DNA of 9,233 nt from a virus. Lineage: Duplodnaviria; Heunggongvirae; Uroviricota; Caudoviricetes. The DNA is taken from positions 1 to 9,233 of IMG/VR virus record IMGVR_UViG_2630968558_000007, one strand, 5' to 3'. A program made the position numbers and the translations under genes. Shown one piece after another: positions 1-9,233 of the stretch (within the stretch, counting starts at the first letter, position 1; every line of letters starts with the position of its first letter). A model generated the notes under the pieces. That model was not told the origin of the DNA and made no database searches. It saw only the letters and a list, made by a program, of their open reading frames with translations.

Positions 1-60
1 ATGAGTCACCTCTGGTTGAGAGTTTACTCACTTAGTCCTGTGTCCACTATTGGTGGGTAA
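1..60 (+). CDS. 3' end of an upstream late-operon gene (partial; by position possibly a gp20-like ejection protein)
   Basis: Frame 1 is open from the window edge to TAA at 58-60 (…SPVSTIGG*), immediately upstream of the gp16-like gene. Product inferred from synteny only. Confidence 0.3.
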   Translation: MSHLWLRVYSLSPVSTIGG

Positions 61-81
61 GATCATTCAATTTACGGTGGA

Positions 82-1923
82 ATGATGAAAGTAACTGCAA
101 ACGGTAAGACATTTACCTTTCCTGATGGTACGAGCACCGAAGATATTGGCACCGCCATTGATGAGTATTTTGCTGGTCAGGCTGTTCAGCAACAAACAGT
201 TAATCAGGCCAATAATGTACCAACACGGAAAGAACCATCATTGATGCAACAAGCTGGCGATTGGCTCACTGGTGGTCAAAGTGCAGGGCAAATTGCAGAA
301 CAGGCTGGTCGTGGTCTGGTAAACATACCATTTGACGTATTGCAGGGTGGCGCAAGTCTGATTAATGCAATCAGTCAGGGGCTTGGTGGGCCAAAAGTAT
401 TGGATGATGTCTATCGTCCAGTCGATCGACCGACAGACCCTTATGCGCAAGCTGGAGAAACAATTGGCGGGTATTTAGTTCCAGGAGTTGGAACGGCAGG
501 AAGCATGGCTATTGGATCACTGGCAGAGGCCGCAAATCAGAAAGGCGATTTCGCACAAAATGCAGCCAAAAATGCCGGAGTTAACCTTGCCGCTCAGGGG
601 GTTCTTTCCGCAGCAGCAAAGGGAATAGGGCGTGGAATAACGGCTATAAAAGGTGATATTTCGCCAGAAGTGGCGAAGAAAATTGCCACATCAGAATCGA
701 TGGGCGTGACACCAATGACATCTGATGTTATCCCGCCGAAAAATGCTTTCACTCGCGGCCTTACTCAGGATGCCGAGGGGGCTTTGCTCGGGACAGGCTC
801 AAAGCGAGCGGAGCAATATGCAACGCGTAGTAAGCTGGTAAGTAATTATTTTGACCGTTTTGGTGAGTACAACCCTGATGATGTGGTGAAATCTCTGACC
901 ACCACGTTAAGGGGGCGGAAGGATGCCGCTGGCGCTGTTATCAATGACGTCACCAATAAAATGGGTAATGCCGCAGTTGATACCACAAACACTATGAATG
1001 CTCTGAATACAGCGATCGCAAGACAGGAACGGCTTGGGACGTCTGCCAATCAAAGCCTGCTTACATCCTTGCGTAACCTACGTGAAGAATTAGCAAACCC
1101 TGCAACTGATTTGGATGTTACGTTTGATCTCCTGCGTCAGCACAGAACAGCATTTAGATCTAATGTTCAGGGAGATGCTATGGTCTTCCCCAACCAGGCA
1201 AAAGCAGCTACCAATATGGTAGAGAATGCAATGTCAAAAGACCTTCGTAACGCAGTTGCAAAAAACCTCGGTGCATCAGACGCAGCAAAATACCTTAAAG
1301 CAAATTCTGATTATGCAAACGTTTATAATAAGGTGCTTAATAAAAACATTGCTAACAAACTCAACAAGGCAAGCAGTGAAGCCAGCCCTGAACTTATAAA
1401 TACCGTTGTATTAAGCAGAAAACCATCTGACGTGAAACGAATATGGAGCGCACTGGATGATAAAGGGAAAGATGCTATGCGTGCAGCTTACGTCAGCAAA
1501 ATAGCGGAAAAGGCCGGTGACTCTCCAGCCAAGTTCATCACTGAAGTTAATAAGCTGAAATCTCAGTCAGGCGGTGAAATTTACAACACTATTTTTTCTG
1601 GAAAGCACATGAAAGAGCTTGATGCTCTTCATGAAGTTCTACAGCAAACAGCAAGGTCAGACACCGCAAATGTAGTAACTCAGACGGGGCAATCACAAGC
1701 CAACAGGATAAGGACGATTGGCGCAACTGCGACTCTTGGTGTATCAATGGGGCTTGAGGCTGGCTTTGGTGCAATGATGCGTTTGTATGAGTCCAAAGCA
1801 GCAAGGAATGCTCTCTTACGTCTGGCAAACACTAAAGCTGGAACGCCAGCCTATGAAAGAGCGTTGAATACCGCTGCAAATGCCATCAGGCCGCTGCTTG
1901 CTACTGAGGCAACACAGCAGTAA
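82..1923 (+). CDS. P22 gp16-like DNA ejection (injection) protein
   Basis: 613-aa ORF; N-terminus [18 protein letters not shown] resembles my recollection of P22 gp16; size close to gp16 (about 609 aa); Ala/Gly/Gln-rich composition typical of ejection proteins; last late gene before the immI region as in P22. Start may be ATG 85 rather than 82 (GGTGG at 76-80). Confidence 0.6.
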
Positions 1924-1947
1924 CGTATGGGGAATTGGATTCAATCG

Positions 1948-2337
1948 TTAACATTTTCTTTTTACTTTTCCAACAAAGGCTTTGGTTGAATCCATATTCC
2001 CATAACCAGAAATGGTTTTCGACATTAAAACTGTTCCATTAGGATGTATTACCCATGAGTCGATAACTCGTTGAGTTTCGCCATTCGCGCCGATTCCGAT
2101 GATGGAGTTTTTAGACAATGCTTTGTAAGCCATGCCGCCCGCATCCGTCCCAGAATATGTGATACTGGCATCTTCACCGTTTGTCTTAATGATGAATGTT
2201 CCACTAAAACCATCTTCTTCCGGTTGAAAATTATTTCGTTCTGAATAGCTTATTCCGTGCATATCTCCAACGACCCAGCACTCTGCTGAGACAGAAAACG
2301 AGAAGACAAAGAAAGCCATTGCTATAATCAATTTCAT
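1948..2337 (-). CDS. hypothetical secreted protein (predicted Sec signal peptide), third gene of the mnt operon
   Basis: 129-aa ORF. N-terminus MKLIIAMAFFVFSFSVSA|EC has a hydrophobic core and an AXA-like cleavage site, with no lipobox. Mature protein has Cys near both ends (ECWVV…KVKRKC). Start lies 15 nt after the stop of the upstream ORF, same strand as mnt. Visibly AT-rich. Confidence 0.55.
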   Translation of the reverse strand: MKLIIAMAFFVFSFSVSAECWVVGDMHGISYSERNNFQPEEDGFSGTFIIKTNGEDASITYSGTDAGGMAYKALSKNSIIGIGANGETQRVIDSWVIHPNGTVLMSKTISGYGNMDSTKAFVGKVKRKC

Positions 2338-2352
2338 TTTAAGCCCTTATTG

Positions 2353-2688
2353 TTATTGATTCTTTTTGCACGGAAATGTTTTTCCTACTGCTAGGGCGGT
2401 TAGTATAACTGCATTCTCATTTCTTGATTCTGGGTTTTTGTTTAGATATTTCTCAACGATATCGGTGTATTGATACATGTCAACGCCATCAGGAGGACAT
2501 AGAGAACCAATTAGTATCAATGAGTCAGTTACTCCGCGCAAATATCCAGTAATGTAAAGCGATGAAAAATCATCACCATTTTTACCTTGTTGAATGTTGT
2601 AAAGAAGGTCATTACCCGTTTGAAGCTCGCGCAGCTCAGCACTGGAAGAAGAGACAACTGCTAACAGGAACAGTGATAGAAATCTCAT
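2353..2688 (-). CDS. hypothetical secreted protein (predicted Sec signal peptide), translationally coupled to mnt
   Basis: 111-aa ORF. N-terminus MRFLSLFLLAVVSSSSA|EL is a signal peptide. Two Cys in the mature part (SLCPPDG, FPCKK). Its ATG overlaps the mnt stop in an ATGA arrangement (plus-strand tcat at 2685-2688). Confidence 0.55.
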   Translation of the reverse strand: MRFLSLFLLAVVSSSSAELRELQTGNDLLYNIQQGKNGDDFSSLYITGYLRGVTDSLILIGSLCPPDGVDMYQYTDIVEKYLNKNPESRNENAVILTALAVGKTFPCKKNQ

Positions 2689-2939
2689 TTCAAATCCTTT
2701 TCATAAATCTTTTTAAGTGTCTCAAACACTATAGCCTTGAACTGCTCGGCCTGCTGATCAGCCAAGCGTTCAGCTTCGTCGCGATATCCTGTAATCGGTG
2801 ATGGTTTTGATAGTGCATCCTGAACGATTTGTAATAACTCAGAGTTCATTGACCTTCCGTTAGCCTCGGCTCTTAATTTCAATTTTTCTCTTACTTCCAA
2901 AGGCATACGGAAGTTAAAGTGCGGATCATCTCTAGCCAT
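2685..2939 (-). CDS. mnt: Mnt repressor (ribbon-helix-helix maintenance repressor of immI)
   Basis: 84-aa product MARDDPHFNFRMPLEVREKLKLRAEANGRSMNSELLQIVQDALSKPSPITGY… is near-identical to P22 Mnt as I recall it. SD GGAGTGA upstream on the minus strand. Divergent from arc across the Pant/Pmnt region. Confidence 0.9.
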   Translation of the reverse strand: MARDDPHFNFRMPLEVREKLKLRAEANGRSMNSELLQIVQDALSKPSPITGYRDEAERLADQQAEQFKAIVFETLKKIYEKDLK

Positions 2940-2961
2940 GCCATCACTCCAAGTTAGTGTA

Positions 2962-2990
2962 TTGACATGATAGAAGCACTCTACTATATT
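2962..2990 (+). promoter_or_regulatory. Pant-like sigma70 promoter driving arc-ant (-35 TTGACA 2962-2967, 17-bp spacer, -10 TATATT 2985-2990)
   Basis: Consensus -35 and near-consensus -10 hexamers with a 17-bp spacer, directly upstream of arc. The Arc operator lies between the hexamers, as in P22 Pant. Confidence 0.7.
2967..2987. promoter_or_regulatory. Arc operator (ATGATAGAAGCACTCTACTAT)
   Basis: 21-bp sequence with TAGA/TCTA half-sites, matching the P22 arc operator from memory; sits in the Pant spacer. Confidence 0.8.
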
Positions 2991-2995
2991 CTCAA
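2967..2995 (-). promoter_or_regulatory. Pmnt-like promoter on the minus strand (-35 TTGAGA from 2995-2990, 17-bp spacer, -10 TATCAT from 2972-2967)
   Basis: Hexamers read on the minus strand with a 17-bp spacer, upstream of the mnt start; overlaps the Arc operator and abuts the Mnt operator. Hexamer assignment is by inspection only. Confidence 0.45.
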
Positions 2996-3015
2996 TAGGT
3001 CCACCGTGGACCTAT
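2995..3015. promoter_or_regulatory. Mnt operator (perfect palindrome ATAGGTCCACCGTGGACCTAT; 17-bp core 2997-3013)
   Basis: Perfect 21-bp inverted repeat. The 17-bp core is the reverse complement of the P22 Omnt sequence AGGTCCACGGTGGACCT as I recall it. It overlaps the predicted Pant start site. Confidence 0.8.
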
Positions 3016-3029
3016 ATTGTGAGGTGAAC

Positions 3030-3191
3030 ATGAAAGGAATGAGCAAAATGCCGCAGTTCAATTTGCGGTGGCCTAAAGAAGTATTGGATTTGGTACGCAA
3101 GGTGGCGGAAGAGAATGGTCGGTCTGTTAATTCTGAGATTTATCAGCGAGTAATGGAAAGCTTTAAGAAGGAAGGGCGCATTGGTGCGTAA
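3030..3191 (+). CDS. arc: Arc repressor (ribbon-helix-helix)
   Basis: Internal ATG at 3030 gives the 53-aa product [53 protein letters not shown], essentially P22 Arc. SD GAGGTG at 3021-3026. The 74-aa track ORF from 2967 runs back across the promoter and operators and is an over-extension. Confidence 0.9.
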
Positions 3192-3259
3192 AGTTGAAGC
3201 CCCAACTGCTGGAACAGTCAGGGCTTCGGTATCAACAAAACTTACGAGGTATTATTGAT

Positions 3260-4150
3260 ATGTCAAGCTTAGCAAAGTCAACTGTAAATTGCACTAATAG
3301 CATCATCATTTCTGACGTCAAGATTCATATGGATTCAGAGGGGCGTTACTCGCTTAATGACCTTCATGTAGCGTCTGGGAAGGAGGAAAAACATCAGCCA
3401 GCTTTCTTCATGCGTAGAAATGAAACTATTGAATTGATTAATGAAATTTTTAATTCTGCGGATATGCAGAATAAGAATCCCGTCCTTTCTAAGAAAGGTC
3501 GATATGGTGGAACCTACGTGTGCAAGGAGCTTGTTTACTCCTACGCCATGTGGATTAGTGCATCCTTTGCGCTGAAGGTTATCCGTGCATATGACGCAAT
3601 GGTTACTGCCACACAAGATAGGAAGGCTATTGGAGGTAAAACTTCAGTAGCTGAACGCACACCGCTACGAGATGCAGTAAACATGCTGGTAGGAAAGAAA
3701 GGACTTCGCTATGACGATGCATACAATATGGTTCATCAGCGTTTTGGTATTGACAGCATTGATGAACTTTCAATTGAACAAATCCCGCAAGCTGTAGAGT
3801 ACATCCACAGGGTGGTGCTTGAAGGTGAGTTCATCGGCAAACAAGAGAGGAAAGTCAACGAGCTTTCTGCAAAAGAAGCAAACAGCCTTGTATGGTTATG
3901 GGATTATGCCAACCGCTCACAGGCATTATTCCGCAAACTGTATCCGGCGCTGAAACAAATTCAATCGAACTATTCCGGCAGATGCTACGACTATGGTCAT
4001 GAGTTCTCGTATGTTATCGGAATGGCAAGAGACGTTTTAATAAACCACACACGAGATGTTGATATCAATGAGCCAGACGGACCAACGAATCTTTCCGCAT
4101 GGATGAGACTTAAGAATAAAGAATTACCTCCTTCAGTACATAACTACTGA
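3260..4150 (+). CDS. ant: antirepressor-like protein with N-terminal KilA-N domain (Ant position of immI)
   Basis: Position after arc as in P22. KilA-N-type motifs [13 protein letters not shown] and [25 protein letters not shown]. Preferred start is ATG 3260 (SD GAGGT at 3246-3250), giving 297 aa; the track ORF begins at TTG 3194, 2 nt after the arc stop and with no SD. Confidence 0.65.
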
Positions 4151-4169
4151 CAGATAACCAACGCAACGA

Positions 4170-4192
4170 CCCAGCTTCGGCTGGGTTTTTTT
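4170..4192 (+). terminator. Rho-independent terminator after ant (stem CCCAGC / GCTGGG, loop TTCG, then a 7-T run)
   Basis: Perfect 6-bp GC-rich stem at 4170-4175 and 4180-4185 with a 4-nt loop, followed directly by T7 at 4186-4192, about 20 nt after the ant stop. Confidence 0.7.
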
Positions 4193-4250
4193 ATGCCCAA
4201 AATTCACCGTAGCCATGCTGCGGCGATTCCTTGTATCTGGAGCAAATTAA

Positions 4251-6173
4251 ATGACAGACATTACAGCCAATGTGATTGTATCGATGCCTTCGCAACTCTT
4301 CACTATGGCACGTTCTTTTAAAGCCGTAGCCAATGGCAAAATTTATATAGGAAAAATTGACACTGACCCGGTAAATCCTGAAAACCAGATTCAGGTTTAT
4401 GTGGAGAATGAGGATGGTTCTCACGTTCCTGTTTCACAACCAATCATCATTAACGCTGCTGGATATCCGGTATATAACGGACAGATTGCCAAGTTCGTAA
4501 CTGTGCAAGGCCACTCTATGGCTGTTTATGATGCATATGGTGCGCAGCAGTTCTATTTTCCTAATGTGCTGAAGTACGACCCGGATCAGTTAAGGCAGCA
4601 GATTGAAGACCCTGATGGGGCAACCAAATATCCCGCATTGCAGATTTCTCGCTGGCGTGATGATTTAGACGTGCGTGGATGGGGAGTATTCCCGGATGGT
4701 ACAGATGTTACTGCTAAACTGTGTGAGGCATTGGATTATGCTAACGGTGATTATTCACAATTAGTTGAGTATGGGAAAAACAGAAAATCATTGCATATCC
4801 CTCCAGGCGATTATGTCGTTGATATGACCAAGCTGACTGGCATTCATGCTTCTGCTGGTCGCTTTGTGATCCGCTGTAACGTTGATTGTGTTGGCCGAAT
4901 CCCTAACGGGGATTTCCTAATCCTTCATAGTAAATCTATAAATGTAACTGGCCTTTCATGTAAATCGTTATACATTAGAGGGCTACAGTTTTCTATTATC
5001 TCGAACATTGATACGACCGGCGATATAAGATTTTTTTCATCAGACGCATACACTCTGCCTGGGTTGGTTGTATGGGGTGGCGGGAGTTATTGGAATCATT
5101 TTGTACGCATCAAAACAGGTACTGCGGCAGGTGGTGGCAGATTCATAATTGACATCTCTGATGGATCTATAAATCAAAATACATTTGAGCAGCTTTGCGG
5201 TGGTGGTCTGATCATAACTGGATCAGGTTTTAGTCGCCAGACCGGTGCTCCGTATGAGGGGAACGCAAACACATTTATAGGTCTTGACACATCGGGAAGC
5301 GGCGATTATTTGCTCTATAACAATAGCACCCCAAATCAGCATAATGTTGTGATAGGTTTGTATGGCGAGGTTACGGGCAATGGGAAAATACGTGGGCCGT
5401 GGACCATACTTGGCGCGCGTGCGCAATTTGGGGGCTGGGCCTCAACCATGAGCCCCATGAATACCATATTAGGGACAGACCCTACAGCAGGCTCACAGGG
5501 AGGAGAGACGTTCAGTGTCTCCGGTTCTAATCTTTGCCCTTCTGGAGATTGGTCGGTTATTGAAGGAGTCTACGGAGCACCGATTGACTTTTCCCTTTTA
5601 ACTATACCGAACGAACGAAAGGTTGGTTCTGACCCTAATGAACCATCTGGCTGCGGTAGATGGTTTGGAGTCACTAACGCATCTCAACGTTGCAGAATAA
5701 CCCTAAATTTAACTAAAACACAGTCAGGTTTCATTCGTGGAGCTTTTTACTTTAAAGGCGACACACCGCTTGAGATAGCTATAGAAGCTCAAGATGGTAC
5801 TAATACCATCTATATGCCAGTTAATATGTTCTACGATATGGGTGTTGGAGGGTGGAAGTTATACAAAGTTTCAGCGCCAACCAACGACAAAAGTAAAGCA
5901 TACAGATTAAGGATTACAGTTGAATCCGGAATGAGCGCTTATGTTGGAGGAGCGTATTTTAGCCAGTATAACGGAACCTTTCTTCCAGTATTCTGCGGAT
6001 GGGAGAAAGTAAAAATGAGATCTAGCGTAAAGCCTACTGTGACAGAGAACACAGGTTCTTTCCCAATCGGCTTGGTGTCCTACAGAACATCTCCAGCAAC
6101 ATATCCTTCCGACCCTACTGTCCAATGGGTGTGGAATGGAAGTACATGGGGGATTGTGAATATTTCTGCCTAA
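4251..6173 (+). CDS. tailspike protein (P22 gp9 / Sf6-type head-binding domain fused to a divergent receptor-binding domain)
   Basis: First ~113 aa ([50 protein letters not shown]…NVLKYDPDQ) are near-identical to the Sf6/HK620/P22 tailspike head-binding domain as recalled. The remaining ~525 aa are Gly/Ser/Thr/Asn-rich and consistent with a beta-helix receptor-binding domain. SD GGAG at 4239-4242. Confidence 0.9.
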
Positions 6174-6178
6174 CCAAT

Positions 6179-6203
6179 AGCGGCATGCTTCAAACATGCC
6201 GCT
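6179..6203. terminator. hairpin between convergent tailspike and acyltransferase genes (possible bidirectional terminator)
   Basis: Perfect 9-bp stem AGCGGCATG / CATGCCGCT with a 7-nt loop, 6 nt after the tailspike stop and just before the acyltransferase stop. No strong U-tract on either strand, so terminator function is uncertain. Confidence 0.35.
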
Positions 6204-6209
6204 TCAAAA

Positions 6210-7307
6210 TTATCTTGGAATATTTTTCTCGATATATTTATAGCTTAGTAGTGCAAAAGCTACAGATGTTATAAATACAATAAAAATAAACGAGAAGCTT
6301 TTTGATAAATCAGCCATCCCAAGCCAATCTATCATCTTAAAGCATAATATAAACGTAATTGGATGAACTAAATACAAAGAGTATGAAGCATCACCAATCA
6401 TGATGAAAATACGTGGTATTTTGATGTTGTCTTGTATGTAGTCAGAGCATGCAGTAAAGCATGCAAACATTATGCAAAAATATTTCCCTGAATGAAAAAT
6501 CCCATGCCCAGCATCAAACTGTGTTATGTAAGCCCATACAGGGATTATGATTCCAATCGAAATTAATGGTATTGCAATCCTTTTGTCTCTAATTGAAAAG
6601 TTACCACTTTTGTATAGGATAGCAATAATCGCACCGAAGACAAACTCCCAAATCAGGCTTTGCATGGTTAAATTTATATATCCTAAACCTTCAATTTTTG
6701 GTCTGTCGAATACACCCGCAATAGATGGCAAAGCTAACAGTGTAATGAAAAACCATAATATATAAAATGTATACCTAAACTTCCCCAGCGCTATTCCAAT
6801 GGCGCAAACTAAATAAAAATATATTTCATAATTGAGGGTCCATCCAACGAACAATGATGGAGGCCCAAAGTATATAGGTGACTCAGTGTTTAGTGGAATG
6901 AAAAGCAAACCTTTGATTATGTTTGTTAATTCAAATGAGCTAGATGATTGGTTATATGAAAACCCATGCATTAAAGATAAATCAACATTTTTAACAATGA
7001 CTATATATGCAATAGTCATGATGAAATATAGAGGCCAAACTCTTAAGAAACGTTTTTTAATAAACTTTATCAAATCATTGCTTTGGTAGCTATGAGACGT
7101 ATAAATTATGATAAAACCACTAATGATGAAAAATAAATCAACTCCGAATGCACCAGGCCAAAATAATCGCTGAGCCAGCCATTCATATTCTGTTCCTTTC
7201 AAAAAATCCCTTGCATGGCAAAGTACGACAAGCATAGCTGCAATAGCCCTAAGCGCCTGTATATACTGAAGGTTATTCTTTCTTGGTGGACTGTTATCGA
7301 TTTCCAA
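6210..7307 (-). CDS. acyltransferase-3 family integral membrane protein (O-antigen acetyltransferase, Oac-like serotype-conversion candidate)
   Basis: 365-aa polytopic hydrophobic protein with acyltransferase-3 signatures: N-terminal LRAIAAMLVVLCH, FGVDLFFIISGF, C-terminal SYSLYLVHP. Sits between tailspike and integrase where Sf6 carries oac. Visibly AT-rich. Apparent TTG start at 7307 with AGGTG 4 nt upstream. Confidence 0.8.
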   Translation of the reverse strand: MEIDNSPPRKNNLQYIQALRAIAAMLVVLCHARDFLKGTEYEWLAQRLFWPGAFGVDLFFIISGFIIIYTSHSYQSNDLIKFIKKRFLRVWPLYFIMTIAYIVIVKNVDLSLMHGFSYNQSSSSFELTNIIKGLLFIPLNTESPIYFGPPSLFVGWTLNYEIYFYLVCAIGIALGKFRYTFYILWFFITLLALPSIAGVFDRPKIEGLGYINLTMQSLIWEFVFGAIIAILYKSGNFSIRDKRIAIPLISIGIIIPVWAYITQFDAGHGIFHSGKYFCIMFACFTACSDYIQDNIKIPRIFIMIGDASYSLYLVHPITFILCFKMIDWLGMADLSKSFSFIFIVFITSVAFALLSYKYIEKNIPR

Positions 7308-7405
7308 AATACACCTATAATAGTTTTTTGATAAGTATCAGTAGCTTCTGAAAGGTCTGAAGTTTAGCACCACAAACGCTATTGATCGACACCGCCGATC
7401 AGTAA

Positions 7406-7425
7406 TACTGTATTAATATACAGTA
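7406..7425. promoter_or_regulatory. LexA (SOS) box TACTGTATTAATATACAGTA
   Basis: Perfect 20-bp palindrome fitting the E. coli LexA consensus CTGT-N8-ACAG; 17 nt upstream of the umuD'-like start codon, with SD GGAGGTGA at 7432-7439. Confidence 0.8.
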
Positions 7426-7442
7426 TCCATCGGAGGTGAGTT

Positions 7443-7829
7443 ATGGGATTCCCGAGTCCAGCACAAGACTACGTTGAAGAGCGCATATCGCTCGACAAGT
7501 GCATCATAAGCAGGCCAGCGGCAACGTACTTCATGCGAGCGGGTGCGACGCACTACCGGGAAGGTATCCTGAATGGCGCGCTGCTGGTTGTGGATGCTTC
7601 GCTATCACCATGCGACGGCTCATTACTTGTTTGCAGAATGGAAGGTGAGCTGAGGATTAAGCGATACCGCAAATCACCCAAGGTTCACCTGGAAGATTTG
7701 CAGACAGGAAGAAGGGAGGCTATACCTCTGCACGATGACGGAACGAGCCCTGATGCGATATTTGGCGTAATCACCTACATCATCAACGATGCGCGGACGG
7801 GTGAGTTTGATGATTGCCCGGTGATGTGA
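7443..7829 (+). CDS. UmuD'-like protein (S24 LexA/UmuD-family C-terminal domain, N-terminally pre-truncated, predicted non-catalytic)
   Basis: 128 aa. MGFPSPAQDYVEERISLD…ATYF… aligns with E. coli UmuD from Gly25 onward (UmuD: C|GFPSPAADYVEQRIDLN…SATYF). The UmuD GDSM catalytic-Ser motif is replaced by ATHY; the Lys-containing region is retained (ELRIKRY vs EFTVKKL). Strong SD, LexA box upstream, no umuC-like gene in the window. Confidence 0.8.
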   Translation: MGFPSPAQDYVEERISLDKCIISRPAATYFMRAGATHYREGILNGALLVVDASLSPCDGSLLVCRMEGELRIKRYRKSPKVHLEDLQTGRREAIPLHDDGTSPDAIFGVITYIINDARTGEFDDCPVM

Positions 7830-7899
7830 GACAGAAATGAGACACAAAAAGCTTTGCACTGAATTGCAAGGCTTAGTGCTGTCAGAGATATAGCGTTGG

Positions 7900-9057
7900 T
7901 TAGCCCACCTTTTCATCAAGCCAATCCGCCCACCACTGCATCATCTCCCTGCGCTTATCGAGATACTGAGCATGGTTGTAAATTCCACGCACAGATCCGC
8001 CATTGGCATGTGCCAGTTGCACTTCAATAGCATCAGCAGGCCATTCGTGCTCGTTCATAATCGTACTGAATTCATGCCTGAATCCGTGACCGCTTTCCAG
8101 ACCCTCATAGCCGATTTGTTTGATCACAAGTAATACCGCGTTCTCGCAGATTGGCTTCTTCTTATCATTACGCCCGGCAAAAACAAACTCTGATACTGGT
8201 TTGGTGATGGAGCTTAACGTAGTGAGAAGTTCAACCACTTGGTCCGACATCGGGACCACATGAATCTTGCGTCCCTTCATCACACTGGCGTCGATAGTGA
8301 TAATCCTGTTTTCAAAATCGACGTTCTTCCATAGCATAGAACGAAGCTCTTTCGTTCTTAGGGCTGTGTAGCGTAAAACTTTGGTCGCAATGAGCGATAC
8401 GATACTTCCTGAAAATGTTGCCAGTGCTTTGTTGAATGTCGGGATCTGGTCTGCAGGAAGAAACGGGAAGTTCTTCTTGCGGTATCCCTTCATGGCGTCA
8501 GCAAGATCAGGTGCCGGGTTATATTTAGCCCTTCCGGTGACAATAGCGTAACGGAAAACCTCGCCGCATCTTCTGCGTGCTTTGTTGGCTCGTTCCATTG
8601 CACCGCGATCTTCAAACCTGCGGATTACTTCAAGAAGTTGCATCGGCTCAATATCCTGAATTTCAAGACCGCCGATGATGGGTAAAATGTCGTCATCAAA
8701 CATTTTGGCAAGTTCAGTCGTATACCCTACAGACCAGACTTGCTTCTTGTGCTCGTACCATTCCTTGTAAATGGCGCTAAAGGAATTGTTGTTAGACGAA
8801 GCCTTTTTCGCCTTTACCGGATCGATGCCAACCGAGATGTCTTTCCTCGCAGTCCATGCTTTATCCCTTGCCTCTTGCAAAGTCATAAGCGGATATTTTC
8901 CGACGGTCAGGATTTTCTCCTTACCGTCAATCTTGTAGCGAAGCTGCCATACCTTTTTCCCTGACACAGGGACATAAAGGTACAGGCCATTACCATCGAG
9001 AAGGCGGTATGGTTTTTCTTTCGGCTTTGCTGCTTCAATCTGCTTAACGGTGAGCAT
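7900..9057 (-). CDS. int: P4-type tyrosine integrase (IntS-like, tRNA-Arg-associated)
   Basis: Product from ATG 9057 is 385 aa, MLTVKQIEAAKPKEKPYRLLDGNGLYLYVPVSGKKVWQLRY… (P4-type N-terminal arm-binding domain), with C-terminal catalytic motifs HGFRHEF and RGIYNHAQY. The track ORF extends to GTG 9093, a less likely start. Adjacent to a tRNA-Arg 3' end, like E. coli K-12 intS next to argW. Confidence 0.9.
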   Translation of the reverse strand: MLTVKQIEAAKPKEKPYRLLDGNGLYLYVPVSGKKVWQLRYKIDGKEKILTVGKYPLMTLQEARDKAWTARKDISVGIDPVKAKKASSNNNSFSAIYKEWYEHKKQVWSVGYTTELAKMFDDDILPIIGGLEIQDIEPMQLLEVIRRFEDRGAMERANKARRRCGEVFRYAIVTGRAKYNPAPDLADAMKGYRKKNFPFLPADQIPTFNKALATFSGSIVSLIATKVLRYTALRTKELRSMLWKNVDFENRIITIDASVMKGRKIHVVPMSDQVVELLTTLSSITKPVSEFVFAGRNDKKKPICENAVLLVIKQIGYEGLESGHGFRHEFSTIMNEHEWPADAIEVQLAHANGGSVRGIYNHAQYLDKRREMMQWWADWLDEKVG

Positions 9058-9218
9058 GGGTAAAAATCCGGTGGGTAAAATTATTTTATCCACTTTTTAC
9101 CCGTCATGGAGTGCGGCTGTCAACGATCTGACGCGAACCATTACGAACTGTGAATCTACGGAAGGCTTGATATTCAGGGGATTTTGCGGACTGGTACGGA
9201 TGGGAGCGAACTGATAAA

Positions 9219-9233
9219 TGGTGTCCCCTGCAG
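9219..9233 (-). tRNA. argW: 3' terminal segment of tRNA-Arg (argW-like), cut by the window edge; attachment-site core or end of the intact tRNA gene
   Basis: Reverse complement of 9219-9233 is CTGCAGGGGACACCA, matching the 3' end (…TTCGATTCCTGCAGGGGACACCA) of E. coli tRNA-Arg(CCU) argW as I recall it. Same orientation as int and about 160 bp upstream of its start. Only 15 nt are visible. Confidence 0.5.

Follow-up and report, generated by a model that had tools for sequence, protein, structure and literature searches.

A candidate O-antigen-modifying acyltransferase gene beside the tailspike of a P22-type prophage of Escherichia marmotae

The window analyzed here is a 9,233-nucleotide stretch of viral DNA (IMG/VR record IMGVR_UViG_2630968558_000007, positions 1 to 9,233), and our subject is a membrane acyltransferase gene that lies at 6210-7307 on its minus strand (the original prediction, made from the sequence alone, gave no strand). 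The window sequence, where it can be compared, has 100% identity with CP025979.1, the chromosome of Escherichia marmotae HT073016. That strain carries an Sf6/HK620-like, P22-type prophage, and the window is the end of it nearest argW. The genes of the window are, in order, gp16, two small cargo genes, mnt, arc, ant, the tailspike gene (plus strand), the acyltransferase gene (minus), humD (plus) and intS (minus). The last 16 bases (9218-9233) align with the annotated attP core of Sf6, and in E. coli 631 that alignment stops 15 nucleotides inside the tRNA-Arg gene (argW). Thus, the window ends at the junction of prophage and chromosome. The attP core lies upstream of int in Sf6-type phages, so the tailspike, cargo and int genes stay contiguous in the prophage; the same prophage orientation has been described for Kapi1 (PMC8787464).

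The acyltransferase gene and its start codon

The open reading frame (ORF) encodes 365 amino acids, beginning with TTG (7307-7305) and ending with TAA (6212-6210). The protein matches the PF01757 (Acyl_transf_3) profile above its gathering score and over its full length (E=1.1e-28; 100.7 bits against a cut-off of 31; residues 14-356 on profile positions 2-325 of 326), and its best profile match is PHROG 3333, annotated as 'O-acetyltransferase' (E=1.2e-59, also full length). NCBIfam has no model for it, and a sequence search of the PDB returned no match. The Pfam search identified no domain besides acyltransferase-3 (AT3); a fused SGNH domain is lacking and the protein ends at residue 365. The AlphaFold model, built with 66 homologues (predicted local distance difference test 91.4, predicted template-modelling score 0.90), consists of ten long helices and nothing more. 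We predict an AT3-only architecture with 10 transmembrane helices. The top fold match in the PDB is the human transmembrane acetyl-CoA acetyltransferase HGSNAT, which is a weak match (probability 0.98, E 0.055), and a fold search of BFVD gave only a weak match to one 637-residue viral protein. HGSNAT and AT3 proteins have been placed in one fold superfamily (2025 paper, PMC12423673).

The motifs that define the family (R/K-X10-H, FFxISG and RxxR, with a His that is invariant across characterized members; PMC7448272) are all present. The first is R20-X10-H31 in transmembrane helix 1 (TM1), where H31 is invariant and R20 at least 90% conserved among 66 sequences. The second, F59-F60-I-I-S63-G64 in TM2, has F59, F60, S63 and G64 invariant in the same set, and the third, R86-F-L-R89 after TM2, has R86 invariant and R89 at least 90% conserved. 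Mutagenesis showed that these motifs matter in OafA, OafB and Sf6 Oac; they are essential in OafA and Oac, and RxxR is so in all three (PMC7448272). The proposal of an acyltransferase-3 gene at 6210-7307 is borne out by an intact ORF with exactly those limits, by the full-length PF01757 match, well above the cut-off, and by the retained catalytic motifs; the predicted topology agrees as well.

The gene is markedly AT-rich. Its G+C content is 33.6%, compared with 45.1% in the remainder of the window and 53.2% in the adjacent humD, which places it 4.6 standard deviations below 119 other 1098-bp windows (z = -4.6; mean 44.4%, standard deviation 2.3%, minimum 40.0%). The value is low at all three codon positions (35, 34 and 31%). 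Homologues in Erwinia, Citrobacter and gut metagenomes have 33-38% G+C within flanks of 46-52%, and AT-richness is a standing trait of the whole gene family. Low G+C therefore does not date the gene as a recent arrival from an AT-rich donor. The original prediction was right about the composition; its suggestion of a separate acquisition needs qualifying, in that the gene came together with the tailspike domain (see below) and its relatives are AT-rich as well.

We place the start at TTG, as did the original prediction. An in-frame TGA lies 11 codons upstream, and the sole other canonical start is the ATG at codon 25 (7235-7233). A Shine-Dalgarno sequence, AGGTG (7312-7316, minus strand), stands 4 nucleotides (TATT) before the TTG, and is the same in four independent genomic contexts. 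Five homologues (43-58% identity) begin at an ATG 9-14 residues ahead of the shared motif L-D/E-Y-I-Q-A-L-R, and the Erwinia homologue has ATG GAA where the window has TTG GAA. PGAP calls the identical 1098-bp coding sequence (WP_072006442.1). Translation from codon 25, to give a 341-residue protein with the TTG unused, is the form found in some older or deposited annotations (P0131, P0132) and would use the commoner start codon. It is nevertheless very improbable: that protein would begin beyond R20 of the R-X10-H motif and about halfway through TM1 (residues 14-36 in the model), the Pfam alignment already opens at residue 14 on profile position 2, no Shine-Dalgarno sequence precedes the ATG, the homologues begin well ahead of the conserved motif, and residues 10-24 show conservation at the protein level between the alleles of Escherichia and Enterobacter. 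Sequence alone could not support the TTG start any better.

The allele of Enterobacter hormaechei has a different N-terminal decapeptide and a GTG start behind AAGGTG, so that two close alleles, one with TTG and one with GTG, both avoid ATG. No unusual RNA structure was found around the TTG (z = 0.37) or around the ATG of codon 25. TTG opens about 3-4% of annotated bacterial genes, and GUG and UUG initiate at about 10-100% of the level of AUG in reporters (bioRxiv 10.1101/063800). A lower translation output from the TTG would be plausible.

The cargo slot and the block shared with the tailspike

The gene occupies a place at which related prophages and phages carry O-antigen modification genes. 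In Sf6 the order is tailspike, terminator, oac (minus), int (minus), and the window matches it in order and orientation. In E. coli 1506 (NZ_CP059288.1, locus L181, 3117-5993) gtrA, gtrB and a gtrC-like gene of the DUF6311 family stand in place of the acyltransferase gene, between a GH28-like tailspike gene and the same humD, at the sbcB-dacD site; homology to the window resumes at 7337, just upstream of the cargo start codon. An ORF for only 95 amino acids stands at this position in strain 631, and phage 611R6 has a different AT3 gene. In Salmonella phage SI8 the place, flanked by int and a convergent tailspike gene, is taken by an AT3 gene of 31% identity. Adjacency of intS and yfdH (gtrB) recurs among E. 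coli chromosomes. Because oac, gtrABC and other AT3 genes directly replace one another here, the reading of this position as an O-antigen-modification slot, made in the original prediction with Sf6 oac and the gtr genes of E. coli K-12 in mind, is supported. The gene has the marks of prophage 'moron' cargo, both in composition (33.6% against 45.1% G+C, z = -4.6) and in being present, absent or replaced at one place (631, Sf6, 1506 and 611R6). Megablast searches with the gene returned no match in the cultured-phage collection and none among plasmids.

The convergent neighbor is a P22-type tailspike gene (4251-6173, plus strand) encoding 640 amino acids, of which residues 1-117 form a P22/Sf6 head-binding domain. 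For the receptor-binding part (from about residue 137; 4659-6173) neither PHROGs nor solved structures offer a detectable relative. The N-terminal part matches a PHROG named for colanic-acid degradation, over residues 1-229 only.

From the ant/tailspike region (about 3659/3817) to the last base of humD (7829), the sequence is 97-98% identical in P22-type prophages at two Escherichia sites, argW (L005, L008) and sbcB-dacD (L007), and the block shared within Escherichia stops exactly at the humD stop codon. A shorter part, 4695-7281, is 95.4% identical in a prophage of E. hormaechei. Its limits are exactly those of the tailspike receptor-binding domain (94.6% identical over residues 137-640) on one side and codon 9 of the acyltransferase gene on the other, with the 36-bp gap and its hairpin in between. 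The tailspike N-terminus and the neighboring genes differ in that prophage, and lysis genes lie on the other side. The E. hormaechei allele (L177, 8001-9095) is about 97% identical past residue 13 and sits at a prophage end, flanked by a 761-residue tailspike and a holin/endolysin/spanin cassette. Thus, one 2.6-kb block that holds the receptor-binding domain together with the acyltransferase gene moves as a unit, with about 95-98% identity across three prophage backbones. Since the block is shared across backbones, we conclude that the two were co-transferred.

More distant relatives keep similar company. Homologues of 43-58% identity adjoin a P2-type tail fiber gene and its chaperone, a P22-type tailspike gene (Citrobacter) or another tail-fiber gene, and relatives at 30-67% identity likewise adjoin tail-fiber or tailspike genes. 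In IMG/VR, 241 viral contigs encode relatives of the acyltransferase. Among 74 immediate downstream neighbors, mostly convergent, the commonest Pfam families are those of tail fibers, tailspikes and tail-fiber chaperones: Caudo_TAP (14), Phage_tail_fib (10), Gp53-like_C (9), Beta_helix (6), Tail_spike_N (5), Peptidase_S74 (5), pectate-lyase-like (5) and Head_binding (3). In Erwinia sp. Eh17-17 (L009, 6440-9110) a 55%-identical homologue is divergent from a second, different AT3 gene (340 amino acids); the pair adjoins fliE, and phage remnants with a tailspike-like gene among them lie nearby.

Expression signals and functional constraint

The tailspike and acyltransferase genes converge on a gap of 36 bp, which contains a hairpin with a 9-bp, G+C-rich stem (6179-6203; AGCGGCATG / CATGCCGCT). 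Its folding energy is -15 kcal/mol (z = -4.8) for the plus strand and -18 kcal/mol (z = -3.5) for the minus strand. Neither strand has a good U-run, and the terminator scan did not flag the hairpin. In Sf6 a terminator is annotated at the equivalent position, and the hairpin in the window is likely a two-way terminator. Upstream of the acyltransferase gene, a second hairpin followed by a U-run (7840-7874, minus strand; AAGCCTTGCA...TGCAAAGCTTTTTGTGT) lies after int and is the likely int terminator. Read-through transcription from int into the acyltransferase gene was considered and rejected in view of this hairpin and U-run. If the int terminator works, the acyltransferase gene needs a promoter of its own.

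The spacer at 7308-7442 was scanned for consensus promoters, and none was found at 9 or more of 12 matches. A candidate can be proposed at 7361-7389 (minus strand), with a -35 element TCGATC (7389-7384), a 17-nucleotide spacer and a -10 element TAAACT (7366-7361). It would be a weak promoter of the extended -10 type (TG at 7369-7368), and it falls within the stretch shared with the region upstream of gtrA in E. coli 1506. Two Dam sites are contained in a palindrome, GATCG-N7-CGATC (7384-7400), which coincides in part with the candidate -35 element of each divergent promoter; in E. coli 1506 the region upstream of gtrA has this stretch with 93% conservation. Known gtr operons are phase-variable through Dam and OxyR, and a gtr-like, Dam-dependent switch is possible at 7384-7400 by analogy. 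The spacer upstream of the acyltransferase gene contains only this one GATC pair, with no second pair and no clear OxyR consensus. Also lacking are tandem repeats that could support slipped-strand phase variation of the gene.

On the other side of the 135-bp divergent spacer is humD (7443-7829, plus strand), encoding a UmuD'-like S24 peptidase (HumD family NF051876, 215 bits). It is preceded by a strong ribosome-binding site (GGAGGTGA) and by a LexA box (TACTGTATTAATATACAGTA, 7406-7425) with 0 mismatches, found in a search that allowed up to 3 mismatches and for which 0.05 boxes were expected by chance. No umuC-like partner was identified within the window. Its 53% G+C content makes humD a second, separate cargo gene, and it stays with the acyltransferase gene in decayed prophage remnants.

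Comparison of the Escherichia and Enterobacter alleles over 351 codons revealed 29 synonymous and 6 non-synonymous differences, and a ratio of non-synonymous to synonymous substitution rates (dN/dS) of 0.05. The acyltransferase is evidently under purifying selection, judged from these alleles. The assembly collection has the identical protein indexed in 214 blocks. At sbcB-dacD in NCTC9038 and in DAM/ANT, only prophage remnants ridden with insertion sequences are left, yet the acyltransferase gene and humD are intact. Disruption was found in two Shigella dysenteriae genomes (CP026827.1 and CP119450.1; L179 and L180), where IS1 has inserted at 6318-6326 with a 9-bp target duplication (CCCAAGCCA), giving a 356-residue chimeric product without the last transmembrane helix (TM10). 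The original prediction had named a pseudogene in related genomes as a sign that it was wrong; what we found, a single, lineage-specific IS1 disruption in a decaying genome, falls short of that.

These observations bear on the idea that the gene is a silent or decaying passenger without a role in the lysogen, its TTG start and poor promoter reflecting disuse. The absent consensus promoter, the non-ATG start, the IS1 insertions and the presence of the gene in only 3 of 13 complete O38 E. coli genomes would fit this idea. We nonetheless consider it improbable, given the dN/dS of 0.05, the catalytic motifs that are all intact, the widespread identical protein, the retention of the gene with humD where the remaining prophage has been lost, and the good, correctly spaced AGGTG. 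The S. dysenteriae genome, moreover, is in general decay.

Probable acceptor and comparison with known systems

We obtained host serogroups from PGAP gene names and from the published description of HT073016 (PMC6650469); the typed carriers are HT073016 and 3 complete E. coli genomes. The O-antigen cluster of HT073016 corresponds to those of E. coli O38 and S. dysenteriae type 8 (SD8), with 99.4% and 99.2% identity, and SD8 antiserum agglutinates the strain (PMC6650469). Among 5426 complete E. coli genomes, only 3 carry the acyltransferase gene, and all three have the O38 wzy/wzx genes, which occur in just 13 of the 5426. The gene also occurs in S. dysenteriae. The O38 O-antigen cluster itself includes no acyltransferase gene, and a scan of species-representative genomes for the O38 Wzy returned no relative. 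All typed carriers being O38/SD8, the distribution points to the O38/SD8 O-antigen as both the receptor of the tailspike and the acceptor of the enzyme. Thus, the original prediction that tailspike and acyltransferase form a receptor-recognition and receptor-modification pair gains support from the co-transfer of the two as one block between three backbones and from the serogroup shared by every typed carrier.

Our favored explanation, which we consider probable from homology and context, is that the gene encodes a lysogenic-conversion O-acyltransferase for the O38/SD8 O-antigen that masks the receptor of the tailspike. If the enzyme works as Sf6 Oac and other AT3-only enzymes do, it would draw an acyl group, most likely the acetyl of cytoplasmic acetyl-CoA, through its transmembrane pore and transfer it, on the periplasmic side, to a sugar hydroxyl of the O38/SD8 O-antigen of the host. 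This is the polysaccharide that the co-inherited tailspike most likely binds and cuts, and the modified form would be a poor substrate for that tailspike. The lysogen would then be protected, released virions would not be lost on lysogen debris, and a serological factor would be altered. Sf6 Oac blocks superinfection by hindering the tailspike (PMC9558356). Expression would run opposite to the late operon, probably from the weak promoter in the spacer common with humD, and a TTG behind AGGTG fits a membrane protein of low abundance.

Several points weigh against this explanation. Besides the missing consensus promoter and the IS1 disruptions described above, our literature search found no O38/SD8 O-antigen structure or O-acetylation status. 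The lineages behind the O38 association are few once dependent ones are set aside: DAM and ANT belong to a single clone, and the remnants at sbcB-dacD may have a common origin. Identity to Sf6 Oac is only 23%, so neither acceptor nor regiochemistry is transferable from that enzyme. Some AT3 enzymes transfer succinyl or other acyl groups, and AT3 enzymes also modify capsules, exopolysaccharides, enterobacterial common antigen and peptidoglycan (PMC9558356).

The last point invites the alternative of a genuine AT3 acyltransferase whose acceptor is another envelope glycan, such as capsule, colanic acid, enterobacterial common antigen, osmoregulated periplasmic glucans or peptidoglycan. AT3-only enzymes with such acceptors are known (ExoZ for succinoglycan, WecH for enterobacterial common antigen and IcaC for poly-N-acetylglucosamine; PMC9558356), and many homologues at 30-37% identity are named 'ExoZ' in their source records, although these names are automatic labels. 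The colanic-acid PHROG matched by tailspike residues 1-229 would also fit, and P22-type tailspikes can target capsules, the CUS-3 tailspike being an endosialidase. The O38/SD8 O-antigen locus, however, is present in every typed carrier, and close relatives hold oac or gtrABC, both O-antigen modifiers, in the same slot. We therefore regard another glycan acceptor as unlikely and retain the O-antigen of the host as the probable one.

Serotype-converting AT3 enzymes that P22-type phages carry between tailspike and int are well known. This kind of conversion is a textbook matter in Shigella flexneri and Salmonella, and is poorly mapped in E. coli and its relatives. The closest parallel is Oac (OacA), the serotype-converting O-antigen O-acetyltransferase of Shigella phage Sf6. 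Like the protein described here, Oac is AT3-only and has the R-X10-H, FFxISG and RxxR motifs. Its gene lies after the tailspike gene and before int, antisense to the late operon, and has a hairpin or terminator in common with the tailspike gene; the phage belongs to the same genus as the window prophage and has the same IntS/argW integration module. At 23% identity (pairwise E = 6e-8) the kinship is only at the level of the superfamily, and Sf6 is not among the tblastn matches of the acyltransferase at E <= 1e-5. Oac also differs in having 333 residues (here 365), a gene of 41.8% G+C (here 33.6%, with a TTG start), and a S. flexneri O-antigen as acceptor, where the O38/SD8 O-antigen is the likely one here. 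The window has, in addition, the extra cargo gene humD between the acyltransferase gene and int.

The AT3 genes grouped in PHROG 3333 or labeled 'ExoZ-like', for example from the Salmonella Lederbergvirus phages SI8, SF6 and SI5 and the Yersinia phages YeP1-3, are only about 28-31% identical. The SI8 gene resembles that of the window in its place between int and a convergent tailspike gene, and functions within this PHROG are putative. The gtrABC cassettes of P22-type and CPS-53-type prophages use the identical slot, and that of E. coli 1506 shares the upstream spacer from 7337. They differ in that three proteins, unrelated to the acyltransferase, carry out glucosylation through undecaprenyl phosphate-glucose. 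Prophage CUS-3 shares its backbone with the window and follows the same recognize-and-modify logic: its NeuO is a K1 capsule O-acetyltransferase encoded beside an endosialidase tailspike that recognizes the same polymer. NeuO is a soluble, hexapeptide-repeat enzyme that modifies capsule and is subject to repeat-based phase variation, unlike the acyltransferase gene of the window, which has no tandem repeats.

More tentatively, the receptor-binding domain and the acyltransferase gene may constitute a portable 2.6-kb 'recognize-and-mask' cassette (4695-7281) for one O-antigen type (O38/SD8), swapped intact between unrelated backbones and genera (E. marmotae, E. coli, Shigella and E. hormaechei), and the non-AUG starts behind AGGTG may reflect a selected low dose. 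We hold this for a possibility somewhat short of even. If it is true, the gene would also explain an as yet unassigned O-acyl substituent or serological subfactor that varies among O38 strains, as the gene itself does (3 of 13 complete O38 genomes).

What the analysis adds to an ordinary case, with no change of concept, is the source of the gene, its probable antigen, the inheritance of receptor-binding domain and modifying gene as one cassette across backbones and genera, and the avoidance of ATG in two alleles. A concrete assignment of a gene to the O38/SD8 antigen is offered for E. marmotae, which is regarded as a potential invasive pathogen. The locus provides a clean example of a receptor-binding domain and its putative cognate receptor-modifying gene inherited as one unit. 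Such linkage bears on the prediction of phage host range and superinfection immunity from sequence, and it matters to typing or vaccines based on the O-antigen, whose epitopes change with non-stoichiometric O-acetylation.

The remaining genes of the window call for some comments on their limits and contents. The IntS-type integrase gene (7900-9057, minus strand; 385 amino acids from the ATG at 9057) has its att core at the window end. The mechanically called ORF, 7900-9093 with a GTG at 9093, is probably too long, the ATG at 9057 being the most likely start, as in IntS. The arc ORF (2967-3191), probably too long as well, encodes 74 amino acids with the Arc domain at residues 25-74 only, and its relatives are annotated with 53. 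For the ant ORF (3194-4150) the TTG start at 3194 is uncertain; relatives are annotated at 292-311 amino acids. Between int and humD, the argW-site prophage of L005 (6270-9400) has two large extra genes (471 and 548 amino acids) without a Pfam match, and strain DAM (L002, 3589-7049) has large genes of 471 and 658 amino acids, also without a Pfam match, beside the prophage remnant. These may be further cargo or defense genes. The two small cargo genes between gp16 and mnt, both on the minus strand, encode a 129-residue protein with a signal-peptide-like N-terminus (1948-2337; phrog_2651) and a homologue of the Rap1a/Tai type VI secretion immunity proteins (2353-2688; PF18602, E=1.2e-14), and together they may shield the lysogen from type VI secretion effectors.

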